Position numbers and translations under genes: made by a program. 64,000 bases of DNA from NCBI GenBank assembly GCA_040754455.1, contig JBFMCP010000001.1:128001-192000 (forward strand). The letters run 5' to 3'. Numbering within the stretch: position 1 is the first letter of the stretch; the number at the start of each line of letters is the position of its first letter. The notes under the pieces were generated by a model that made no database searches, was not told the DNA's origin, and saw nothing but the letters and a program-made list of their open reading frames with translations. The DNA is from Nitrospirota bacterium. GTDB taxonomy: Bacteria; Nitrospirota; Thermodesulfovibrionia; Thermodesulfovibrionales; Dissulfurispiraceae. Of this stretch, positions 55,262 to 63,895 are shown one piece after another.

Positions 55262-55582
55262 ATGAAAATATATGCAACATTGCTCGTACAACTCGCCGTT
55301 ATGCTGTCAGTCGCCACTGTGGCCGGTGCCGTCCCTGTCGGGCGGGACCTCGAATGGGCATCCGGCAGCAGCACGATCGTGTTCAGCGGCGCCCTTCATG
55401 CCGACAAAGGATATACCTGCAATGATTGCCACCCGGTGCCCTTCCTCATGAAAAAGACCGCCGGTAAAATGAAAATGGCGGAGATCAATGCCGGACAGTA
55501 TTGCGGCGCCTGCCACGACGGAGAGAAGGCCTTCAGTTCGAAAAAGCTCGAAAACTGCATCAAGTGCCACACCTGGAAGTAG
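55262..55582 (+). CDS. Triheme c7-type periplasmic cytochrome
   Basis: Signal peptide; three CxxCH motifs (CNDCH, CGACH, CIKCH). Confidence 0.88.
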   Translation: MKIYATLLVQLAVMLSVATVAGAVPVGRDLEWASGSSTIVFSGALHADKGYTCNDCHPVPFLMKKTAGKMKMAEINAGQYCGACHDGEKAFSSKKLENCIKCHTWK

Positions 55583-55636
55583 GGAACGCCCATCCCTGCC
55601 GTTGACCACCTCTGACTGATCCGGTAACCAGCGCTT

Positions 55637-57370
55637 TTATTTCTTCCCTGTCTTCTGCAGCTTCGCCCACTCATCCTTTAATGTCACGGTCCTGTTGAAG
55701 ACCGGCCTTTCGGGCGAAGAGTCGATGCTATCGACACAAAAATAGCCCAGGCGTTCGAACTGGAATTTGTCTCCCGGCTTTGCCTCTTTGAGGCTCGGCT
55801 CCAGGCGGCATGACTGCAGCACCTCGAGCGATTTGGGGTTCAGATAGTCGGTAAAGTCCTTTCCTTCCTCTACATCGTTGGGGTTTTCTTTCGTGAAAAG
55901 CGTGTCGTAGAGACGCACTTCCGCCTCGATCGCATGCGAAGCCGAGACCCAGTGCAGCGTTGCCTTGACCTTGCGGCCGTCAGGGGCGTCGCCGCCCCGT
56001 GTCGCGGGATCGTACGTACAGTGCAGTTCAACAATATTCCCATTTGCATCTTTCACTACACTCCCGCATTTGACGAAGTAGGCATATCGCAGGCGCACCT
56101 CGCGTCCCGGCGCCAGACGGAAGAACTGCTTCGGCGGGGCCTCCATGAAGTCATCCCGCTCGATATACAGCTCCCGCGAAAAAGGGACTTTCCTCGTCCC
56201 TGCGTTCGGGTCTTCAGGGTTGTTGATGGCGTCCAGATATTCGACCCGGCCTTCGGGATAGTTGTCGATGACCACCTTGAGCGGCCGCAGCACCCCCATC
56301 ACCCGTGGGGCCCGTTTGTTCAGATCCTCGCGGATACAGAATTCGAGCAGTGCCATATCGACAAGGCTCTCCTTCTTGCCTACCCCGATCCGCTCGCAGA
56401 AGTTCCTGATCGCCTCAGGCGTATAGCCGCGCCGCCGGATGCCTGCAAGGGTGGGCATCCGGGGATCGTTCCAGCCCGTGACATACTTCTCATTCACCAG
56501 TTTAAGGAGCTTCCGTTTGCTCAGCACCGTATGGCTCAGATTGAGGCGTGCGAACTCGATCTGCTGCGGGTGATAGATATTCAATGCATCAAGAAACCAG
56601 TCGTAGAGCGGCCGGTGGTCCTCATACTCCATAGTACAGATAGAATGGGTGATCCCCTCAATAGAATCGGAGATGCCGTGGGCATAATCGTACATAGGAT
56701 AGATGCACCACGTAGTGCCGGTCCGGTGATGCTCATCTTTTTTTATCCTGTACATGACGGGATCGCGCATATTAATGTTGCCCGAGGCCATATCGATCTT
56801 GGCCCTGAGGACGCAGGTGCCTTCATCGAACTCGCCGTTCCTCATGCGCTCGAAGAGGTCGAGGTTCTCCTCCACCGAGCGGTTACGGTAAGGGCTCTCT
56901 TTACCCGGTGCGGTCAGGGTGCCGCGATACTCTCTGATCTGGTCAGCAGACAGATCGCAGACATAGGCCTTGCCCATTTTGATGAGCGCAACGGCATATT
57001 CATAAAGCTTGCCGAAATAGTCCGAGGCATAGTAGAGCCGGCCACCCCAGTCGAATCCCAGCCAGCGGACATCCTCCATAATGGATTCCACATACTCCAT
57101 CTCCTCTTTGCTCGGATTGGTGTCGTCGAAGCGGAGGTTGCAGAGTCCCCCGAACTCGGCAGCCAGGCCGAAGTTGAGGCATATTGATTTGGCGTGGCCG
57201 ATGTGCAAATAACCGTTCGGCTCCGGCGGGAACCGCGTCATGAGCCTGCCGCCGAATTTGCCGGTCTCCATGTCCTCGGCGATGATCGCCCGGATGAAAT
57301 TGGGTGCCGGGACAGCAGCCTTTTCGTCCTTCTTTTCGTCTATTTTCTTATCAGGTTTCGGTAGTTCCAT
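55637..57370 (-). CDS. glnS: Glutamine-tRNA ligase
   Basis: [29 protein letters not shown]. Confidence 0.97.
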
Positions 57371-57487
57371 GCGTGCTTCCTTTTATGTTGATGTGCTCGG
57401 AGCAATAGCTTTCCTTTGCCCGCTCTTTATTTTAACACATTGGATATTCTCATAGAATGAGACGTTATGGTACAATAAGTATTGGTT

Positions 57488-57574
57488 GCCGAAGTGGCGG
57501 AACTGGCAGACGCGCTAGGTTCAGGGTCTAGTGGTCGCAAGGCCGTGCGGGTTCGAGTCCCGCCTTCGGCACCA
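57488..57574 (+). tRNA. tRNA-Leu (CAG)
   Basis: GCCGAAG/CTTCGGC acceptor stem, anticodon loop TTCAGGG, long variable arm, GGTTCGAG T-loop, encoded CCA. Confidence 0.97.
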
Positions 57575-57749
57575 TTTTCTTCATCTCTCCAAATGCTTAC
57601 CTTCCTGACAAAAAGTCAGATGTATACCGGCTTCTGCATGATACCGGCCGTTCCATTACGCCGAATCCTGCGGTCTCGTTGCTGTTAAAATTGATTTTAT
57701 ATCGTAAGCCTAATATAATGTACTACTTCACAGGGCTCAAGGGAGGAAT

Positions 57750-59027
57750 ATGGGAGAGAGGGATAACAAGCACCGGGGTGACGCACCATCGAAGCTCACT
57801 AAAATACCGGTCGCCGTGGACCGTCTCTTTTTGGGCCTCAGAATCCCTTTCGATGTGTTCCTCAAACAGGAAAACAAGTATGTCCATCTTTTCACAAAAT
57901 GGACTCATTTTGACGAAGCCACCAAAGCGATTCTGGATGAGAAAGGGATACGACATGTTTATATAGAGGGTACCGCATCCACGATCGAAGCGTACTTCAA
58001 GCATGCAGCCGATATTAAACCGGCAGGAGTAGATCCAAAAAAGTTCTATGAGTATTCACGCAGGAAAGAAGAGCTCCACCATATAGATAAAACCATACTG
58101 GTCGATAAAAACCTCTTCGTGACCGGTACAACAATCAATTTCAGCATTTTCGCAATCAATAATATGGCCTTCGAAATGTTAGTCGAGGCATCGGAAAACG
58201 CTCCCGTTGCAATACCCAAAAGAGTGCTCACCGTCAAAGGGGACCTGGCGATAAAGGTGACTGATGTCCCGCTCTATCAGGACTATCTCAACAGAATTCT
58301 CAGCGCTCCGGACATTCCCGAAACGTTAAAACAGAAAGGCAAGGCTATTTCCTTAAAAGAAAATTCAAAGATCCTTATTAGGGATGTCCTTGCAAACCCC
58401 CAGGAGAAAGGAAAGATCGAGGAACTGGGCGGTCTCGTCAATACAATGATCGATTCGGTCATAAATATGAATGTCACCGCTGCTGATCTTATGTCGCTGA
58501 AGAACCATGACCTCTATACCTATACGCATTCGGTCAATGTAACGGTCATGTCGATCACTCTCGGCATTGCGGTAGGGTTCGATAGGAATAAAATAGAGAA
58601 GCTGGCCCTTGGCGCGATACTGCATGACATAGGGAAAAGCAGGATATCTCCTGACATCCTGAACAAGCAGGGGGAGCTCACCGATCAGGAGTTCTCTATC
58701 ATGAAGACCCATGTGGCTGAGGGCGTAAGGATACTGGATGACAACACGCAGATTCCGCGGGAGGCTCTTATCCCTGTCCTTCAGCATCACGAGAGGCTCT
58801 CGGGCAGGGGATATCCCTTCGGGCTGAGCGGCAAGGCGATCAAACCCTTCGGGAGAATAGCCGCTATTGCCGATTGCTATGACTACCTGACGACGCCCCG
58901 CCCCTATCGCTATGCCTATACGCCGTACATGACTCTCTCTCTCCTCGCCAAGGAGACAAAGGGGAAAGGAGATTTCGATCAGGAGTACTTGAAAGCGTTC
59001 ATACAAACACTCGCTATTATTTCTTAG
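57750..59027 (+). CDS. HD-GYP domain phosphodiesterase
   Basis: HSVNV, LHDIGK, HHERLSGRGYP, RPYR. Confidence 0.92.
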   Translation: MGERDNKHRGDAPSKLTKIPVAVDRLFLGLRIPFDVFLKQENKYVHLFTKWTHFDEATKAILDEKGIRHVYIEGTASTIEAYFKHAADIKPAGVDPKKFYEYSRRKEELHHIDKTILVDKNLFVTGTTINFSIFAINNMAFEMLVEASENAPVAIPKRVLTVKGDLAIKVTDVPLYQDYLNRILSAPDIPETLKQKGKAISLKENSKILIRDVLANPQEKGKIEELGGLVNTMIDSVINMNVTAADLMSLKNHDLYTYTHSVNVTVMSITLGIAVGFDRNKIEKLALGAILHDIGKSRISPDILNKQGELTDQEFSIMKTHVAEGVRILDDNTQIPREALIPVLQHHERLSGRGYPFGLSGKAIKPFGRIAAIADCYDYLTTPRPYRYAYTPYMTLSLLAKETKGKGDFDQEYLKAFIQTLAIIS

Positions 59028-59272
59028 TACAGCCTCCACACCACCTGCACGGCGGTAGAAATAGAGAGGCGGGAGATATCATTTCCGGTAGCCAGGTCGC
59101 TCAGGGGTTCTCTCCAGAAGGCGCCTTGCGCGGAGCATTGAGCGGAGCATTGACATGTAGAACATTTTGTGATAATTCTTAGGTATACTATTGCAACTTT
59201 CAATTCTTGATACGTTCGGTATCCCGGACTAGCGCACCATCAATTTAAGATTCCGAAAAGGAGGCAGGAGAA

Positions 59273-59659
59273 ATGAATTCATTCATGAAGTCAGTAGCGT
59301 GGTATCTCGTTGTGGCGATGTTTATCATCGGCATCGCTCCCCGTGTCGATGCAGCATTCTCTCCCTCTCAGGCGATCGCGCTTGCACAGGCCGACAGGGC
59401 GGCCGATCTCCAGAAAGTCCAGAACGTGCTCGAGATGAAGATGGTGAAGGACAGGCTCGAAAAACTCGGCTACACCCAGGAGGAGATACAGCAGCGCCTC
59501 AGCCAGCTCAGCGACCAGCAACTGCATCAGCTTGCATTGAATCTCGATGAGCTGAAGGTCGGCGGCGATGCGCTGGGGGTTATTATTGCGCTCCTCGTTA
59601 TTGCCATCCTCGTTGTCATCTTCTTGCAGCTTACGGGGCACAAGGTCATTATCAAGTAA
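59273..59659 (+). CDS. PA2779-family-like protein
   Basis: Signal peptide, RL..LG..RLSQLSD..L.QLA core, GG motif, then a hydrophobic C-terminal helix. Confidence 0.7.
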   Translation: MNSFMKSVAWYLVVAMFIIGIAPRVDAAFSPSQAIALAQADRAADLQKVQNVLEMKMVKDRLEKLGYTQEEIQQRLSQLSDQQLHQLALNLDELKVGGDALGVIIALLVIAILVVIFLQLTGHKVIIK

Positions 59660-59680: not shown

Positions 59681-59717
59681 AAAAACGGGGAGGGGCCATG
59701 CCCTCCCCGTTTTTTTT
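59681..59717 (+). terminator. Intrinsic terminator
   Basis: AAAAACGGGGAGGG..CCCTCCCCGTTTTTTT. Confidence 0.88.
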
Positions 59718-59760: not shown

Positions 59761-60885
59761 ATGGCACCTGATATCATCAGCCCCCCATCGTTAGCAGAGC
59801 ACTTTACCGATAAAGAGATCGCATCGCTGCTGGATCGGAAACTGCTGCATGCCCTCTCTTATGACGGGATCGATATGGTGAGGCTCTCCCAGGATTACAA
59901 GAGCTATCCGAGAGGCACGGTGTTTCATGGGCATACCGTTATCCCGGGATATCCAGCGATCATGAGGGTCCTCCACCTTAAAAACGGCATTGAGCATTAC
60001 TTCGAAGATACCTTTTATATCGAAGAAAAAGTGGACGGCTATAACGTAAGGGTGGCAATGATCAACGGCACCCCCCTCGCCTTTACCAGAGGCGGCTTTG
60101 TCTGTCCCTTCACCACTGATCGGCTCCCTGATCTGATCGACCTCACTTTTTTTGATTACTACCCGCAGTATACGCTCTGCGGGGAGATCGTCGGTCCGGG
60201 GAACCCTTATAATACTGAGGTTATCCCTTATATCAAGGACGATGTTGTCTTCTTTGTCTTTGACTTCCTGGATGAGCAGGGAAGACAGATTGCCATAACT
60301 GAACGGTACGCCCTTCTTGAGTGCTTTCATATGCACCAAGTAGCACGCTGGGGTGAGTTCAGCCTATCGGATATTCCTGCGGTAAAGGAGATCATTCTCG
60401 AGCTGGACAGAACCGGCAGAGAGGGAATCGTGGTCAAGCCGACAGGCAGCGGCAGGATGATAAAGTATGTCACCCCGTCGTCCTGCCTAAGGGACCTCCA
60501 ATCGACCACTAACCTTATGGCAGAGATTCCGGCAGGTTACTATATTCAGCGAATACTCAGGGCGGTCTTCTTCTCACATGAATTCGGCATTCCGCTGAGC
60601 GAAGACTATCTTGTTGCATCGGCAAAAGCGCTCTACAGTATCCCCGGTCTGGCAGTGGAGCAGATAGCCAACGGCGGCAGCATAAAAGAAACGTTCGAGA
60701 TAAAGGTGCGACATAAGGAGGCTATAGATAAGCTACTCGCCCATTTGAACAGGGCAGGAGTGCGGACAGAGCTCGTTTCGCTGGAGCAAATGGATGGCTA
60801 TTTCAAGGTAAAATTCTATAAAATCTATACAAAAATGACCAAGGAGCTCCGGCACCGACTTGCAGGAAAGGGCTTTTACGACTAA
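59761..60885 (+). CDS. ATP-dependent RNA ligase, Pab1020/Rnl3 family (start uncertain)
   Basis: Motif I EKVDGYNVR, TRGGFVCPFTT, LCGEIVGP.NPY, FFVFD, GREGIVVK, KYVT, C-terminal dimerisation region. Confidence 0.9.
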   Translation: MAPDIISPPSLAEHFTDKEIASLLDRKLLHALSYDGIDMVRLSQDYKSYPRGTVFHGHTVIPGYPAIMRVLHLKNGIEHYFEDTFYIEEKVDGYNVRVAMINGTPLAFTRGGFVCPFTTDRLPDLIDLTFFDYYPQYTLCGEIVGPGNPYNTEVIPYIKDDVVFFVFDFLDEQGRQIAITERYALLECFHMHQVARWGEFSLSDIPAVKEIILELDRTGREGIVVKPTGSGRMIKYVTPSSCLRDLQSTTNLMAEIPAGYYIQRILRAVFFSHEFGIPLSEDYLVASAKALYSIPGLAVEQIANGGSIKETFEIKVRHKEAIDKLLAHLNRAGVRTELVSLEQMDGYFKVKFYKIYTKMTKELRHRLAGKGFYD

Positions 60886-60951
60886 ACATCCCGATAATCA
60901 AGCGCCACATTCCAAAAATTATTTATTATTCGAAATTCGGGACGTGGAATT

Positions 60952-61662
60952 CTATTCTTTTTGCCTTTTTGCGAGGAGTTCCGTCCTTTTGATGGCGCTC
61001 ATCAGGTACTCTTTGAATTTTTCGGGGAAGAGCCATTGTATCCCGAGCTTTTCCGCCCACTTTACCAATCCCTGGTCAGCGGTGATCAGCAGGGCATTGA
61101 GCTCTAGAGCGAGGAGCAGAAGATCGACATCCTCCTTGCTGTCGATAATCCCCTCGCGCAATGCCTCGCGGTACTTTTTTCTCAGATCCTGGATGATCTC
61201 ATCAGCCCTCTTGTGCTCTGCGCTCCGCACCGCTTTCTCGGCGAGCCGCAGCCCCTTATTGATCCTCTCCCGTATATCTTCGATCAGCTCATAGAGGAGG
61301 AATCCGGGGCACTGGATCTCATGTCTCTTGGGCGGCTTTTGGTGGAGGATCAGGAGCAGGTCTGCCGGAATCTTGTCGCGCTCGACGAAGTGGAGCAGCT
61401 CCTCAAAAATAGAGGGGGGCATATAGAATTCGAGGATATGTATCTGCGCCGCCATAAAGAGAAAATTCTCGAGCGCCTCGGTGGGAGAAGCGCCGAGACT
61501 GGTCCGCACGTCAGGATTAACGAAGAGACTTGTGTCAAGGACCACATTTAAGGGAGATGTGCGGGAACGCGGACGCGCAGAGGTCTTTTTCGCGGCTTTT
61601 TTTTCTTCAGAGCTTCCGTTCTTCTGCTCTTCCGGACTGCTTTTACGCTTTGCAGGACTCAT
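60952..61662 (-). CDS. Protein-only RNase P (HARP; PIN-like 'RNA ligase partner' family)
   Basis: VLDTS, FYMPPS, RERINKGLR, YREALREGIIDSKEDVD, TADQG: the HARP signature with its Asp set. Confidence 0.9.
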   Translation of the reverse strand: MSPAKRKSSPEEQKNGSSEEKKAAKKTSARPRSRTSPLNVVLDTSLFVNPDVRTSLGASPTEALENFLFMAAQIHILEFYMPPSIFEELLHFVERDKIPADLLLILHQKPPKRHEIQCPGFLLYELIEDIRERINKGLRLAEKAVRSAEHKRADEIIQDLRKKYREALREGIIDSKEDVDLLLLALELNALLITADQGLVKWAEKLGIQWLFPEKFKEYLMSAIKRTELLAKRQKE

Positions 61663-62956
61663 AAAGATCGAGTTTGTAGGTGTTCCATTCGTTGCAGTTG
61701 AGGCATCTTCCCGACCAGCTGGGGGCTTTGAAGCCGCAGACCGAGCAACAGTAGGTATCGATAACGAATTTCCTTATACCGCAGGCGCGCCTGAACTCAT
61801 TCACCGCAGCAGAAACCTGATTTCTCTTCATGTACAGGTCGCCTTTCAGGCTGAAGAGCTCGGGAGGGGAAAAGATGCTTGTATCGATTGAGTTGAGCGT
61901 TGCAAGGGCATCATCGATCATCTCGAGCCGGTAGTAAAGCTTTCCGAGCAGGAACTTGAGCCCGCTGTCCTGGGGATTTCTGGAGACGGCGTTCTTGTAA
62001 AAGCGTATCAGCCTGCCTGGCTCACCGACACTGATGAGCAGGTCTTCGAGACGGGCGAGGAGGATGACGGAGTTTAACTGTTCATAGCTCTTTTCGAGGA
62101 AGTTGATGACCTCCTCCGTTTCTCCTTTGGTCAGGAGCACCTCGGCCATGCCGAGGTAGGCGGGGATAAAGGTGCTCTCCATTTTGAGCAGCGTCCTGAA
62201 GGCCTTTTCGGCTTTTTCGAGGTTGCCGTTCTCAAGGCTCGCACGGGCATATTCGTATTTATACCCCAGCAGGCGGTGCTCCTCTTTCTGCCGGTCCTTT
62301 TCATTCTGTTCAAGCTTGATAATCGCCTTCTGCAGTGAGAGCAGGTCGTCCCACTCCTCTTTTCTTTCGAGGAGCGCACGTTTGCGATAGAGTGCAGTGA
62401 GATTTTCGGCATCGATATCGAGGATGTCTTCAAGATATCTGAGGGCGTCCTCGTGCCGCTGCGTCCGCTCCATCACAAGCTCCAGCGAAAGGAGGGCCTG
62501 CAGATTTCTTGGATCGATATCGCGGGCCTTCTTATAGTACTCGAGGGCGGTCTTATAATCCTCGTTGTTGAGGGCGATATCCCCCATTCTGAGCAGCGCG
62601 TCGACGTATTCGGGATCTTCCTTCAGGATCCCCCCGAGTGCCTCCCGGGCGTCTTCGTCCTTGTTGCCCATGATCGCGTTGAGGGCCTTTGAATAGTAGG
62701 CATCGATGCGGGCGTCACGTTTCTGTTTTTTCTGGTACTGCATATTGTCGATAAGTCGTTTCGTGTCCCGGATGAAGAAGATGACAAGAATAAGGAGCGC
62801 TCCGACAGTCGTCGCGAGGAGCATGAGCGCGATCTTCGGGAGCTCGTAAAGGTTCCCGAAGGGGACTTTCACGGTCACCATCCCTTTATTTTCCATAGCG
62901 AAGAGGCCGAGAGCTGCAAGAAAGATCAGGAATATAAGGATTGCCAGCTTTCCCAT
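61643..62956 (-). CDS. LapA/LapB-like TPR membrane protein
   Basis: Two N-terminal TM helices, TPRs, C-terminal CSVCGF..W..CLNC.EW rubredoxin-like motif. Confidence 0.8.
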   Translation of the reverse strand: MGKLAILIFLIFLAALGLFAMENKGMVTVKVPFGNLYELPKIALMLLATTVGALLILVIFFIRDTKRLIDNMQYQKKQKRDARIDAYYSKALNAIMGNKDEDAREALGGILKEDPEYVDALLRMGDIALNNEDYKTALEYYKKARDIDPRNLQALLSLELVMERTQRHEDALRYLEDILDIDAENLTALYRKRALLERKEEWDDLLSLQKAIIKLEQNEKDRQKEEHRLLGYKYEYARASLENGNLEKAEKAFRTLLKMESTFIPAYLGMAEVLLTKGETEEVINFLEKSYEQLNSVILLARLEDLLISVGEPGRLIRFYKNAVSRNPQDSGLKFLLGKLYYRLEMIDDALATLNSIDTSIFSPPELFSLKGDLYMKRNQVSAAVNEFRRACGIRKFVIDTYCCSVCGFKAPSWSGRCLNCNEWNTYKLDLYESCKA

Positions 62957-63393
62957 CAGTGGTGATACCCCCTTCCTTCGCGTATCATCAGCGACCGGTA
63001 GAGCTGCTCAAGAAAAATGAGCCGTGCCATCTCGTGGGTAAAGGTCATTTTTGAGAGTGCGATGATATCTGCTGCGTTGTCCCGTACCTCGTCGGAAACG
63101 CCGTAGGGCCCTCCGATAACAAATTCCATTTTGGTCCTGTCCTTAAAAAGGCCGGCAAATTCCACCGAGGTAAATTCCCTTCCCCTCTGGTCGAGCAGGA
63201 TATACGAGTCTGCCTGTTTCACTATCTTTCTGCCTTCTGCCGAAAGGGAACTCTCCACGCTCTTCCCCTTTTCCTCTTTTATTTCCACAACCGAGATATC
63301 CGCCATGGGACGCAGCCGCTTGAGGTAGTGCTCAATCCCCTCGCTGAGATACCGCTCTCTTGTCTTCCCTACCCAGAGGATCCGTATCCTCAT
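62956..63393 (-). CDS. rlmH: 23S rRNA (pseudouridine1915-N3)-methyltransferase
   Basis: VGKT, FVIGGPYG, LSKMTFTHEMARL, EQLYR, YHH. Confidence 0.95.
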   Translation of the reverse strand: MRIRILWVGKTRERYLSEGIEHYLKRLRPMADISVVEIKEEKGKSVESSLSAEGRKIVKQADSYILLDQRGREFTSVEFAGLFKDRTKMEFVIGGPYGVSDEVRDNAADIIALSKMTFTHEMARLIFLEQLYRSLMIREGRGYHH

Positions 63394-63416: not shown

Positions 63417-63494
63417 GAAGTGAGAAGTATAAACTCAAATACTTTCTTTTTGTTTTTCTCACTTCTCACTTTTCACGTGTAACTTCTTACTTTC
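63417..63494. repeat. Heptamer (AGTGAGA/TCTCACT-like) inverted micro-repeat
   Basis: AGAAGTGAGAA inverted against TTCTCACTTCTCACTTTTCAC; overlaps the rsfS stop region. Confidence 0.55.
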
Positions 63495-63833
63495 CTCTAT
63501 CGGTATGCGCGGTGCATCCAACCAGAATTTTTCGAGCTCGTAGAACGCCCTGGTTTCCTCTTCGAAGACATGGACGATAACATCGCCGTAATCCATAAGA
63601 ATCCAGTGGGCATACTCTGCCCCCTCGATGCCCTGCGGCTTTATCCCCTGCTGGCGCAATACCTCTTCTATATGATCGGCGATTGCTTTAACTTGCGTAG
63701 TGCTCTCACCTGAGCAGATGACGAAATAGTCGGCGATGACCGTGAGCCCTTTTAATTCGAGGATGAGCGTTTCCGTCGCTTTTTTGTCAAGGGCGGCGTT
63801 GGCGACCTTTATCGCTTTTGTCTTGCTTTCTAT
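63459..63833 (-). CDS. rsfS: Ribosome silencing factor (non-canonical ATA start proposed)
   Basis: ALDKKA..IADYFVICSG.ST.QVKAIAD..WILMDYGDVIVHVF..R.FYELEKFW; upstream of rlmH. Confidence 0.92.
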   Translation of the reverse strand: MESKTKAIKVANAALDKKATETLILELKGLTVIADYFVICSGESTTQVKAIADHIEEVLRQQGIKPQGIEGAEYAHWILMDYGDVIVHVFEEETRAFYELEKFWLDAPRIPIEESKKLHVKSEK

Positions 63834-63895
63834 GGGAAATACTCCTTTCTCTGCTGCTTATTATAGCAGAATTCAAAAGCGGAGAGTACAATTAA

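Follow-up and report, generated by a model that had tools for sequence, protein, structure and literature searches.

Genes for HARP, a protein-only RNase P of the PIN_5 family, and for Rnl3, an RNA ligase of the Pab1020 type, have already been described as paired and convergently oriented by Seshadri & Gopalan (2025, mBio; PMC12153264), who find the ligase in 89% of HARP-positive genomes overall. Here we analyse one such pair, carried on a 64,000-nucleotide stretch of DNA from a Nitrospirota bacterium of the order Thermodesulfovibrionales (contig JBFMCP010000001.1, assembly GCA_040754455.1; the whole stretch is hereafter ‘the window’, and the genome from which it comes G000). Table S1 of the same study contains a co-localised, convergent pair in Dissulfurispira thermophila T55J, a Thermodesulfovibrionia isolate, and nine HARP-positive Thermodesulfovibrionales isolates are listed there, one of the nine with the ligase (PMC12153264). 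The pair in the window is a further case of this published arrangement, its linkage, orientation and occurrence in the class all being known already; the initial annotation of the locus was right to call the two families genomic partners.

The broader question is why there should be a protein-only RNase P at all, alongside a near-universal ribozyme or in its place; cultured HARP-only models are few. Passages in two papers state that some Nitrospirae encode only HARP (PMC6380272, PMC8266387). The genes of the RNA-based enzyme are not tabulated by Seshadri & Gopalan, whose supplement holds no occurrence of ‘rnpA’ or ‘RNase P RNA’ (PMC12153264), and our searches for later literature, whether about RNase P in the Thermodesulfovibrionales or about HARP together with Rnl3, returned that study alone. 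The locus itself is ordinary for its lineage; it is the lineage that is useful, with 90 of 151 sampled species HARP-only, some carrying both enzymes, and a ligase that varies even within a genus, thus offering natural comparisons both for the function of the ligase and for the genome changes needed to give up the ribozyme (which apparently do not include the tRNA leaders). To the published picture we add a HARP-only genome, an order that serves as a large graded natural experiment, a ligase that behaves as a minority, HARP-dependent accessory, and the absence of the leader signature reported for Aquifex.

Identity of the two genes

Taking HARP first, we see that the protein matches the PIN_5 profile PF08745 over positions 2–202 of 205 (2e-59; 200.9 bits against a cut-off of 27), and scores 201.8 bits (7.9e-60; cut-off 95.3) with TIGR03875, a family that NCBI names ‘RNA ligase partner protein’. 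Seven distinct solved sequences of ‘RNA-free ribonuclease P’ are matched at E-values of 2e-64 to 7.5e-41; residues 38/39 to 225/226 align near-gaplessly with 7e8k_A (no gap, 2e-64) and 7e8j_A (two short gaps, 1e-61), so that, as judged by alignment, the protein resembles solved HARPs from end to end and is predicted to carry their inserted spike-helix domain. The motifs VLDTS (residues 41–45), GIIDSKEDVD (171–180) and ADQG (195–198) are all present, and the four aspartates that they contribute, D43, D174, D178 and D196 (within LDTS, DSKEDVD and TADQG), are invariant in alignments of 21 and of 94 relatives; the D43 column of the latter holds aspartate in 86 rows and a gap in the eight rows that are truncated. 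The catalytic aspartates of Aquifex Aq880 are given in a passage of the published text as D7, D138, D142 and D161 (PMC8266387), with which we pair the four window residues, in the same order, by motif order rather than by direct alignment.

Ahead of the PIN core lies a stretch of 39 amino acids rich in S, K, R, P and E. The usual spacing in the order places a start peptide (M-x-P/S-A/V-K/R) ten codons before LDTS (18 loci, strict pattern). The window and nine of its close relatives differ, with the peptide 37–53 codons before LDTS and, after it, a low-complexity insert that varies from locus to locus and has many S, K, E and R residues. Comparison of these loci indicates that the extension is real, lineage-specific and fast-evolving, and that the start codon overlapping the lapB-like gene is the conserved one. 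That the extension might act as a flexible, basic RNA-binding tail is a guess on our part.

The ligase frame is open from position 59698, with the ATG at 59761 falling where the alignments of relatives begin (query positions 1–8). Its product matches RNA_ligase (PF09414; 2e-19, 70.8 bits, cut-off 27), Lig_C, the C-terminal domain of Pab1020 (PF18330; 1.6e-17, 64 bits, cut-off 25), and TIGR01209 (324.3 bits, cut-off 136.9), and aligns end-to-end with the solved structure of Pab1020 (2vug; E 8.4e-71). Motif I, K90-V-D92-G93, and the downstream nucleotidyltransferase motifs E221-G222 (EGIVVK) and K235 (KYVT) do not vary among the 16 ligases aligned, which share 65 invariant positions in all. The window ligase is likely to seal or circularise RNAs with 5′-phosphate and 3′-hydroxyl (5′-P/3′-OH) ends in an ATP-dependent manner. 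The genome holds a single copy of each gene.

These results agree with most of the initial annotation, which had been made from the DNA letters alone: it described an intact Pab1020-type ligase with KxDG and downstream motifs, ending 66 bp from a HARP gene with the three motifs given above, the latter overlapping (by 20 nt, as we find) a lapB-like gene at the end of an rsfS–rlmH run and carrying a Lys/Ser-rich N-terminal extension, put at ~35 residues and here measured as 39 before the PIN core. Both family assignments hold, with profile scores far above the cut-offs.

Absence of an RNA-based RNase P

The assembly of G000 comprises 3.27 Mb in 92 contigs, with a completeness of 100 by marker genes and a contamination of 2.05. 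Within it we find neither component of the classical enzyme (the rnpB RNA and the RnpA protein; together ‘RNP’). No match is returned in G000 by RF00010, RF00011 or RF00373 (the bacterial type A, bacterial type B and archaeal RNA models), nor by PF00825 for RnpA, and an order-specific profile, for which four rnpB genes from the Thermodesulfovibrionales were used, gives nothing better than E 7.4 in this genome. On contig C12, yidD (aligned from 55668) and then yidC come straight after rpmH (55512–55643), with no rnpA between, where an RNP-bearing relative has the order rpmH–rnpA–yidD–yidC; as the three genes lie on one contig, the absence of rnpA is not an assembly gap. A search of G000 for PRORP (PF16953) gave no match either, but carries no information, the control genomes having given none. 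We are thus dealing with a near-complete genome of HARP-only genotype, from which both rnpB and rnpA are missing.

This genotype is widespread among relatives. A first survey of 41 genomes (G000, 24 of its family, f1, and 16 of its order) finds HARP in 33, with rnpB and rnpA each in the same seven; neither gene occurs in any of the 24 other f1 genomes. A second survey, an even sample of 151 species genomes of the Thermodesulfovibrionales, yields HARP in 104, rnpA in 56, rnpB in 56, at least one RNP gene in 58 and the ligase in 33 (31 of these above cut-off). Cross-tabulated, 90 genomes are HARP-only, 44 RNP-only, 14 have both and three have neither, the 14 with both comprising 12 from family f8 plus G100 and G036. 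HARP is found in 15/15 genomes of f1, 11/11 of f3, 12/12 of f5, 14/15 of f6, 5/6 of f9, 14/14 of f10 and 14/14 of f11, and in this survey each of these families has zero RNP hits; the single-contig genomes G008, G045, G098 and G135 are HARP-only too. Kin are not independent, and the survey counts are descriptive rather than tests.

It is most likely, then, that this lineage, like most of the order, has lost the classical RNase P. With rnpB and rnpA both absent, HARP is most likely the only enzyme to process tRNA 5′ ends in G000, a role in vivo that we infer from the genotype; the initial annotation had proposed looking for these genes, and the outcome moves the emphasis from an auxiliary, ‘archaeal-type’ nuclease to a probable sole RNase P. 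Considering this together with the inheritance of the ligase, described below, we think it probable, on comparative genomic grounds, that HARP is the sole RNase P of this bacterium, the classical enzyme having been lost, and that Rnl3 is a co-inherited, dispensable accessory.

Distribution and inheritance of the ligase

Across the 151 genomes, the ligase occurs in 32 of the 104 that have HARP and in none of the 44 that are RNP-only; the one remaining hit of the 33, a fragment scoring 35 bits, comes from G087, a genome of 89% completeness in which neither HARP nor RNP was found. The two genes are convergent and less than 700 bp apart in 27 of the 32, and on different contigs in four. In G074 the ligase lies 32 kb from HARP and is split into two overlapping pieces with one in-frame TGA (G074:C10:6886-8074), probably a decaying copy. 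We also compared the 80 closest HARP loci in species genomes (the ‘related loci’, almost all from metagenome-assembled genomes of the Nitrospirota/Thermodesulfovibrionales): a convergent ligase is present in 16, at least 1300 nt downstream of HARP are free of a ligase in 51, and 13 are too short to tell. That 72 of the 104 HARP-positive genomes lack the ligase, including a relative from the same genus, implies that the main job of HARP is independent of it. In the relative concerned (G001), GlnRS, a PA2779-family gene and HARP stand in the same order as in the window, the ligase having gone with no detectable remnant. The ligase is present in 8/14 genomes with both RNase P types versus 24/90 that are HARP-only, a contrast that is suggestive only.

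In nine ligase-bearing loci the pair sits in housekeeping neighbourhoods other than that of lapB. Two of these were annotated: the pair is accompanied by miaA, topA and NUDIX, SurA-like and HIT genes in one case, and by flavin reductase and purine biosynthesis genes in the second. Family f12 is RNP-only in 12 of its 14 genomes, and its two HARP carriers, G137 and G100, are also its only ligase carriers; in both, lapB is followed by leuS as in their RNP-only kin and HARP lies elsewhere, abutting the ligase in G137, a placement consistent with the two genes having been secondarily acquired, or relocated, together. On a HARP tree of 94 rows the ligase label changes at least 13 times, at least six of these changes being forced by well-supported branches (two rows scored as ligase-negative do have a ligase, but on a different contig, and some loci are not long enough to decide), and it is clustered, with 0 of 500 shuffles as low. 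For the paired comparison we used 23 loci, reduced to 21 by dropping two identical duplicates: the ligase tree recovers the main clades of the HARP tree, the two sets of pairwise distances are correlated (Mantel r = 0.87, a value that none of 2000 permutations attains), and the mean p-distance is 0.19 for HARP and 0.46 for the ligase, which is thus 2.4 times more divergent. The initial annotation had suggested comparing the two phylogenies for co-transfer; they turn out to be congruent, and the linkage conserved.

PIN nucleases and Rnl3 have compatible chemistry, both working with 5′-P/3′-OH ends, and a possible, though somewhat doubtful, reading is that the two proteins share substrates: HARP would trim the 5′ ends of specific non-tRNA or tRNA-derived RNAs, Rnl3 would circularise or repair the same molecules, and this would be what keeps the genes together, a ‘cut-and-seal’ scheme that could coexist with a housekeeping role for HARP. 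The scheme would account for a ligase that accompanies HARP in 32 of its 33 hits, is absent from all RNP-only genomes, lies convergent and adjacent in 27/32 genomes and in 16/16 of the ligase-bearing related loci, is found with HARP in at least two unrelated genomic contexts, and in f12 is confined to the two of 14 genomes that carry HARP. It fits less well with the ligase-free majority of HARP-positive genomes, with a ligase evolving ~2.4 times faster than its supposed partner, with convergent and hence not co-transcribed genes, or with bacteria that are without C/D-box small RNAs, the known archaeal substrates of Rnl3 (PMC12153264). The idea is also one of the hypotheses put forward by Seshadri & Gopalan (2025; PMC12153264), and the initial annotation had put it forward too. 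The gene identities, motifs and layout from which that annotation argued all stand; such a module is a possibility, and the main job of HARP does not need the ligase.

An unlikely alternative is that the linkage is purely historical, the ligase being a passenger acquired with HARP that now acts independently (in general RNA repair, for example) or is decaying. The repeated changes of label on the HARP tree, the clean deletion within the genus, the broken copy in G074 and the high divergence of the ligase are what would be expected of a passenger; set against them are the intact window ligase with all its motifs, the 65 invariant positions across 16 ligases, the continued adjacency of the pair after relocation, and the fact that the ligase is never found without HARP, despite the existence of RNP-only sister families with a common habitat and ancestry. 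That the ligase depends so strictly on HARP, and that adjacency is kept after relocation, argues for a functional tie of some kind; the frequent, clean losses argue that any such tie is conditional.

tRNA leaders and encoded 3′-CCA

The clearest difficulty for HARP as a long-standing housekeeping enzyme comes from the tRNA genes. These were called with ARAGORN, the 5′ end being fixed by requiring T at position 8, and the set leaves out tRNA-His and tRNA-SeC, any gene whose acceptor stem is poor and any call reaching 96 nt; the counts for the comparator genomes in Table 1 are samples among the matches listed, with 52 of 202 Rfam tRNA matches outside them.

Table 1. Base at position −1, G-C extension of the acceptor stem and encoded 3′-CCA in tRNA genes
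Genome	RNase P genotype	U at −1	A at −1	G-C extensions	CCA encoded
G000	HARP-only	29/45	8/45	0	30/45
G008	HARP-only	22/34	9/34	0	21/34
G033	HARP-only, family f10	22/36	9/36	0	1/36
G036	both	17/23	4/23	1	21/23
G030	RNP-only	12/20	4/20	0	19/20
G039	RNP-only	15/32	10/32	2	13/32

In Aquifex, as reported by Davydov et al. (2025; PMC12439589), 38 of 44 tRNA genes carry A(−1), a base that they find to favour cleavage by HARP, and there is no G-C extension of the acceptor stem. Several observations tell against the reading that we prefer, in which HARP is the sole RNase P and the ligase a co-inherited accessory. The tRNA leaders of G000 show no Aquifex-type enrichment of A(−1) and look the same as those of RNP-bearing relatives; A(−1) is a reported trait of Aquifex rather than a formal criterion for HARP-only bacteria, but the HARP-only lineage has kept classical U(−1) leaders, which sits uneasily with a long-standing housekeeping role. 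The 3′-CCA is encoded in two thirds of the G000 tRNA genes, and one HARP is reported to cleave CCA-bearing pre-tRNAs ~10-fold more slowly (PMC12153264). When four bacterial HARPs were assayed in vitro as recombinant proteins, none cleaved pre-tRNA (PMC12153264), so membership of the family is no guarantee of activity. An assembly of 92 contigs is one in which RNA genes can go unassembled and, for the ligase, the two trees may be congruent through common vertical descent and not through any functional coupling. As regards the leaders, either the A(−1) signature is not a general consequence of reliance on HARP, or else these HARPs differ in preference.

One way to accommodate the leaders would be a hidden, divergent RNA-based RNase P (or some other enzyme) that matures tRNA 5′ ends, leaving HARP with a different job; U(−1) and encoded CCA, each in about two thirds of the G000 tRNA genes, are indeed what classical RNP substrates look like. 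We consider this very improbable: three Rfam models and the order-specific profile find nothing, RnpA has been cleanly deleted from a conserved operon, HARP and RNP are near mutually exclusive over 151 genomes with only three having neither, and the order’s RNP bearers score 169–340 bits with the same model, such that divergence within the order poses no problem of detection. A type II toxin–antitoxin system (VapBC-like), in which a PIN toxin, HARP, would do damage that the ligase repairs or masks as its antitoxin, is hardly credible and was rejected: HARP does belong to a VapC-like PIN_5 cluster and the idea has been discussed (PMC12153264), but HARP stands alone in 72/104 genomes, where nothing points to a substitute antitoxin, sits inside a housekeeping operon and is convergent with the ligase rather than in one operon with it, and a ligase knockout in Thermococcus kodakarensis has no growth defect (PMC12153264).

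Some further features of the tRNA genes may be recorded here. The encoded 3′-CCA varies widely within the order, from the low of G033 to the high of G030 (Table 1), and does not track RNase P type. In G000, ARAGORN calls a 95-nt tRNA-Cys(GCA) on the reverse strand (C21:54195-54289) besides the normal 75-nt tRNA-Cys, its length suggesting a long variable arm or SeC-like shape. Three copies of tRNA-Leu(CAA) lie near contig ends (C43:40-125, C66:7798-7883 and C74:3176-3261), identical in their first and last 8 nt and in 10 nt of 3′ flank; they may represent a repeated element or an assembly duplication.

Layout of the locus and neighbouring genes

The features of the locus are listed in Table 2.

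Table 2. Features of the HARP–ligase locus, in window coordinates
Feature	Position	Strand	Remarks
Rnl3/Pab1020-type ATP-dependent RNA ligase	59761..60885	+	374 aa; nucleotidyltransferase domain with K90xD92G93, plus C-terminal Lig_C domain
Spacer, ligase stop to HARP stop (convergent)	60886..60951	.	66 bp; minimum free energy −9.3 kcal/mol, z = 0.2
HARP (PIN_5, protein-only RNase P family)	60952..61662	-	236 aa; four catalytic-type aspartates D43, D174, D178, D196 conserved
HARP N-terminal 39 codons	61546..61662	-	conserved start peptide MSPAKRK, then lineage-specific, low-complexity S/K/R/E-rich insert of ~29 aa
LapB-like membrane-anchored TPR protein, C-terminal Zn ribbon	61643..62956	-	last 20 nt overlap HARP start
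rlmH (23S rRNA pseudouridine-1915 N3-methyltransferase)	62956..63393	-	same operon run as lapB-like gene
rsfS (ribosome silencing factor)	63459..63840	-	approximate 5′ limit

The spacer between the two stop codons folds no better than shuffled sequence, and we see neither a bidirectional terminator nor a structured RNA in it. At its other end HARP begins, with an ATG at 61662, inside the 3′ end of the lapB-like TPR/zinc-ribbon gene. Among the 80 related loci, HARP comes directly after the lapB-like gene in 58, and rsfS is upstream in 58. In five RNP-only genomes from four families the nadD–rsfS–(rlmH)–lapB run is present, with no HARP-like sequence after lapB. The rsfS frame of the window is open for ~130 codons, of which the first ATG, GTG or TTG would yield only 66 amino acids; the true start may be a non-canonical codon.

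On the ligase side, a tRNA-Leu(CAG) gene (57488-57574, forward strand; C1:185488-185574), with U at −1 and an encoded CCA, lies between the GlnRS gene and an HD-GYP-like gene; a 68-aa open reading frame at 57482-57688 overlaps this tRNA and is spurious. Between GlnRS and the ligase (57750-59659, forward strand) there follow an HD-GYP-type gene (PF13487) and a PA2779-family/DUF6627 gene. Two relatives, L029 and L030, have GlnRS directly after the ligase, and in the same-genus G001 we find the PA2779-family gene with no match to the HD-GYP-type gene; the HD-GYP-type/PA2779 stretch looks like an insertion. Elsewhere, in two relatives, open reading frames of 187 aa (L048:684-1247) and 146 aa (L046:1414-1854) stand between HARP and the ligase, such that the spacer tolerates insertions. 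The wider HARP–ligase gaps of some relatives are thus filled by unrelated inserted frames, and a conserved third partner was rejected.

Discussion

Working from the operon outwards, the reading that we prefer would run as follows. HARP would be expressed from the tail of a housekeeping nadD–rsfS–rlmH–lapB-like operon, its start codon overlapping the stop of the lapB-like gene, and, as a PIN-type metallonuclease in homo-oligomeric form, would be the cell’s one RNase P, taking the 5′ leaders off its tRNAs. The invariant catalytic-type aspartates of HARP, its slow evolution (mean p-distance 0.19) and its place at the 3′ end of rsfS–(rlmH)–lapB in 58 of 80 related loci speak in favour of such a role. 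The ligase, which would have arrived or been inherited with HARP as a two-gene unit, and which occurs only where HARP does, would be an accessory that seals or circularises 5′-P/3′-OH RNAs, dispensable and repeatedly lost.

A more speculative extension, which we offer tentatively, is that the two genes form a mobile unit and that, wherever it arrives, the way is opened for HARP to replace the ancient ribozyme RNase P, with every stage preserved in the order: 44 genomes that are RNP-only, 14 with both enzymes (eight with the ligase) and 90 that are HARP-only (24 with the ligase). Family f12 could supply a further stage, being mostly RNP-only, its two carriers of HARP and ligase having the pair off the usual lapB site and one of them being already without RNP. 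The ligase would, under this possibility, mark an ancestral, non-tRNA job of HARP and decay once HARP has become housekeeping, and the takeover would have occurred without the co-evolution of A(−1) leaders proposed from Aquifex.

Comparison with known systems

The closest described system is the HARP–Rnl3 pair of Seshadri & Gopalan, with which the window pair shares both families (PIN_5 HARP; TIGR01209/PF18330 ligase), the convergent, abutting layout and the bacterial class; the difference lies in the ligase share of HARP-positive genomes, which is 89% overall in their survey (PMC12153264) versus 32/104 in this order. Pab1020 of Pyrococcus abyssi (2vug) and the solved ligases 8uce and 3qwu resemble the window ligase over its full length (E 8.4e-71 to 3.6e-73); KxDG and the C-terminal Lig_C domain are common to Pab1020 and the window protein, which, unlike Pab1020, sits in a bacterial host without C/D-box small RNAs, the documented archaeal substrates (PMC12153264).

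Among bacteria, Thermodesulfatator indicus, according to a passage of the published text (PMC9945441), has both enzyme types, as do the 14 of 151 genomes here in which HARP occurs with rnpA and/or rnpB; the window’s genome differs from it in being without both RNP genes. The HARP-only state is shared with Aquifex and its Aq880, as described in passages of PMC8266387 and in PMC12153264, and its extent in the Thermodesulfovibrionales is larger than the ‘a few genera’ mentioned in the published text on HARP-only Nitrospirae (PMC6380272, PMC8266387). Unlike Aquifex, for which PMC12439589 gives A(−1) in 38/44 tRNA genes, the window’s genome has it in 8/45, and the window HARP is set apart further by a 39-residue N-terminus with its low-complexity insert and by the position of its gene within an rsfS–rlmH–lapB operon.

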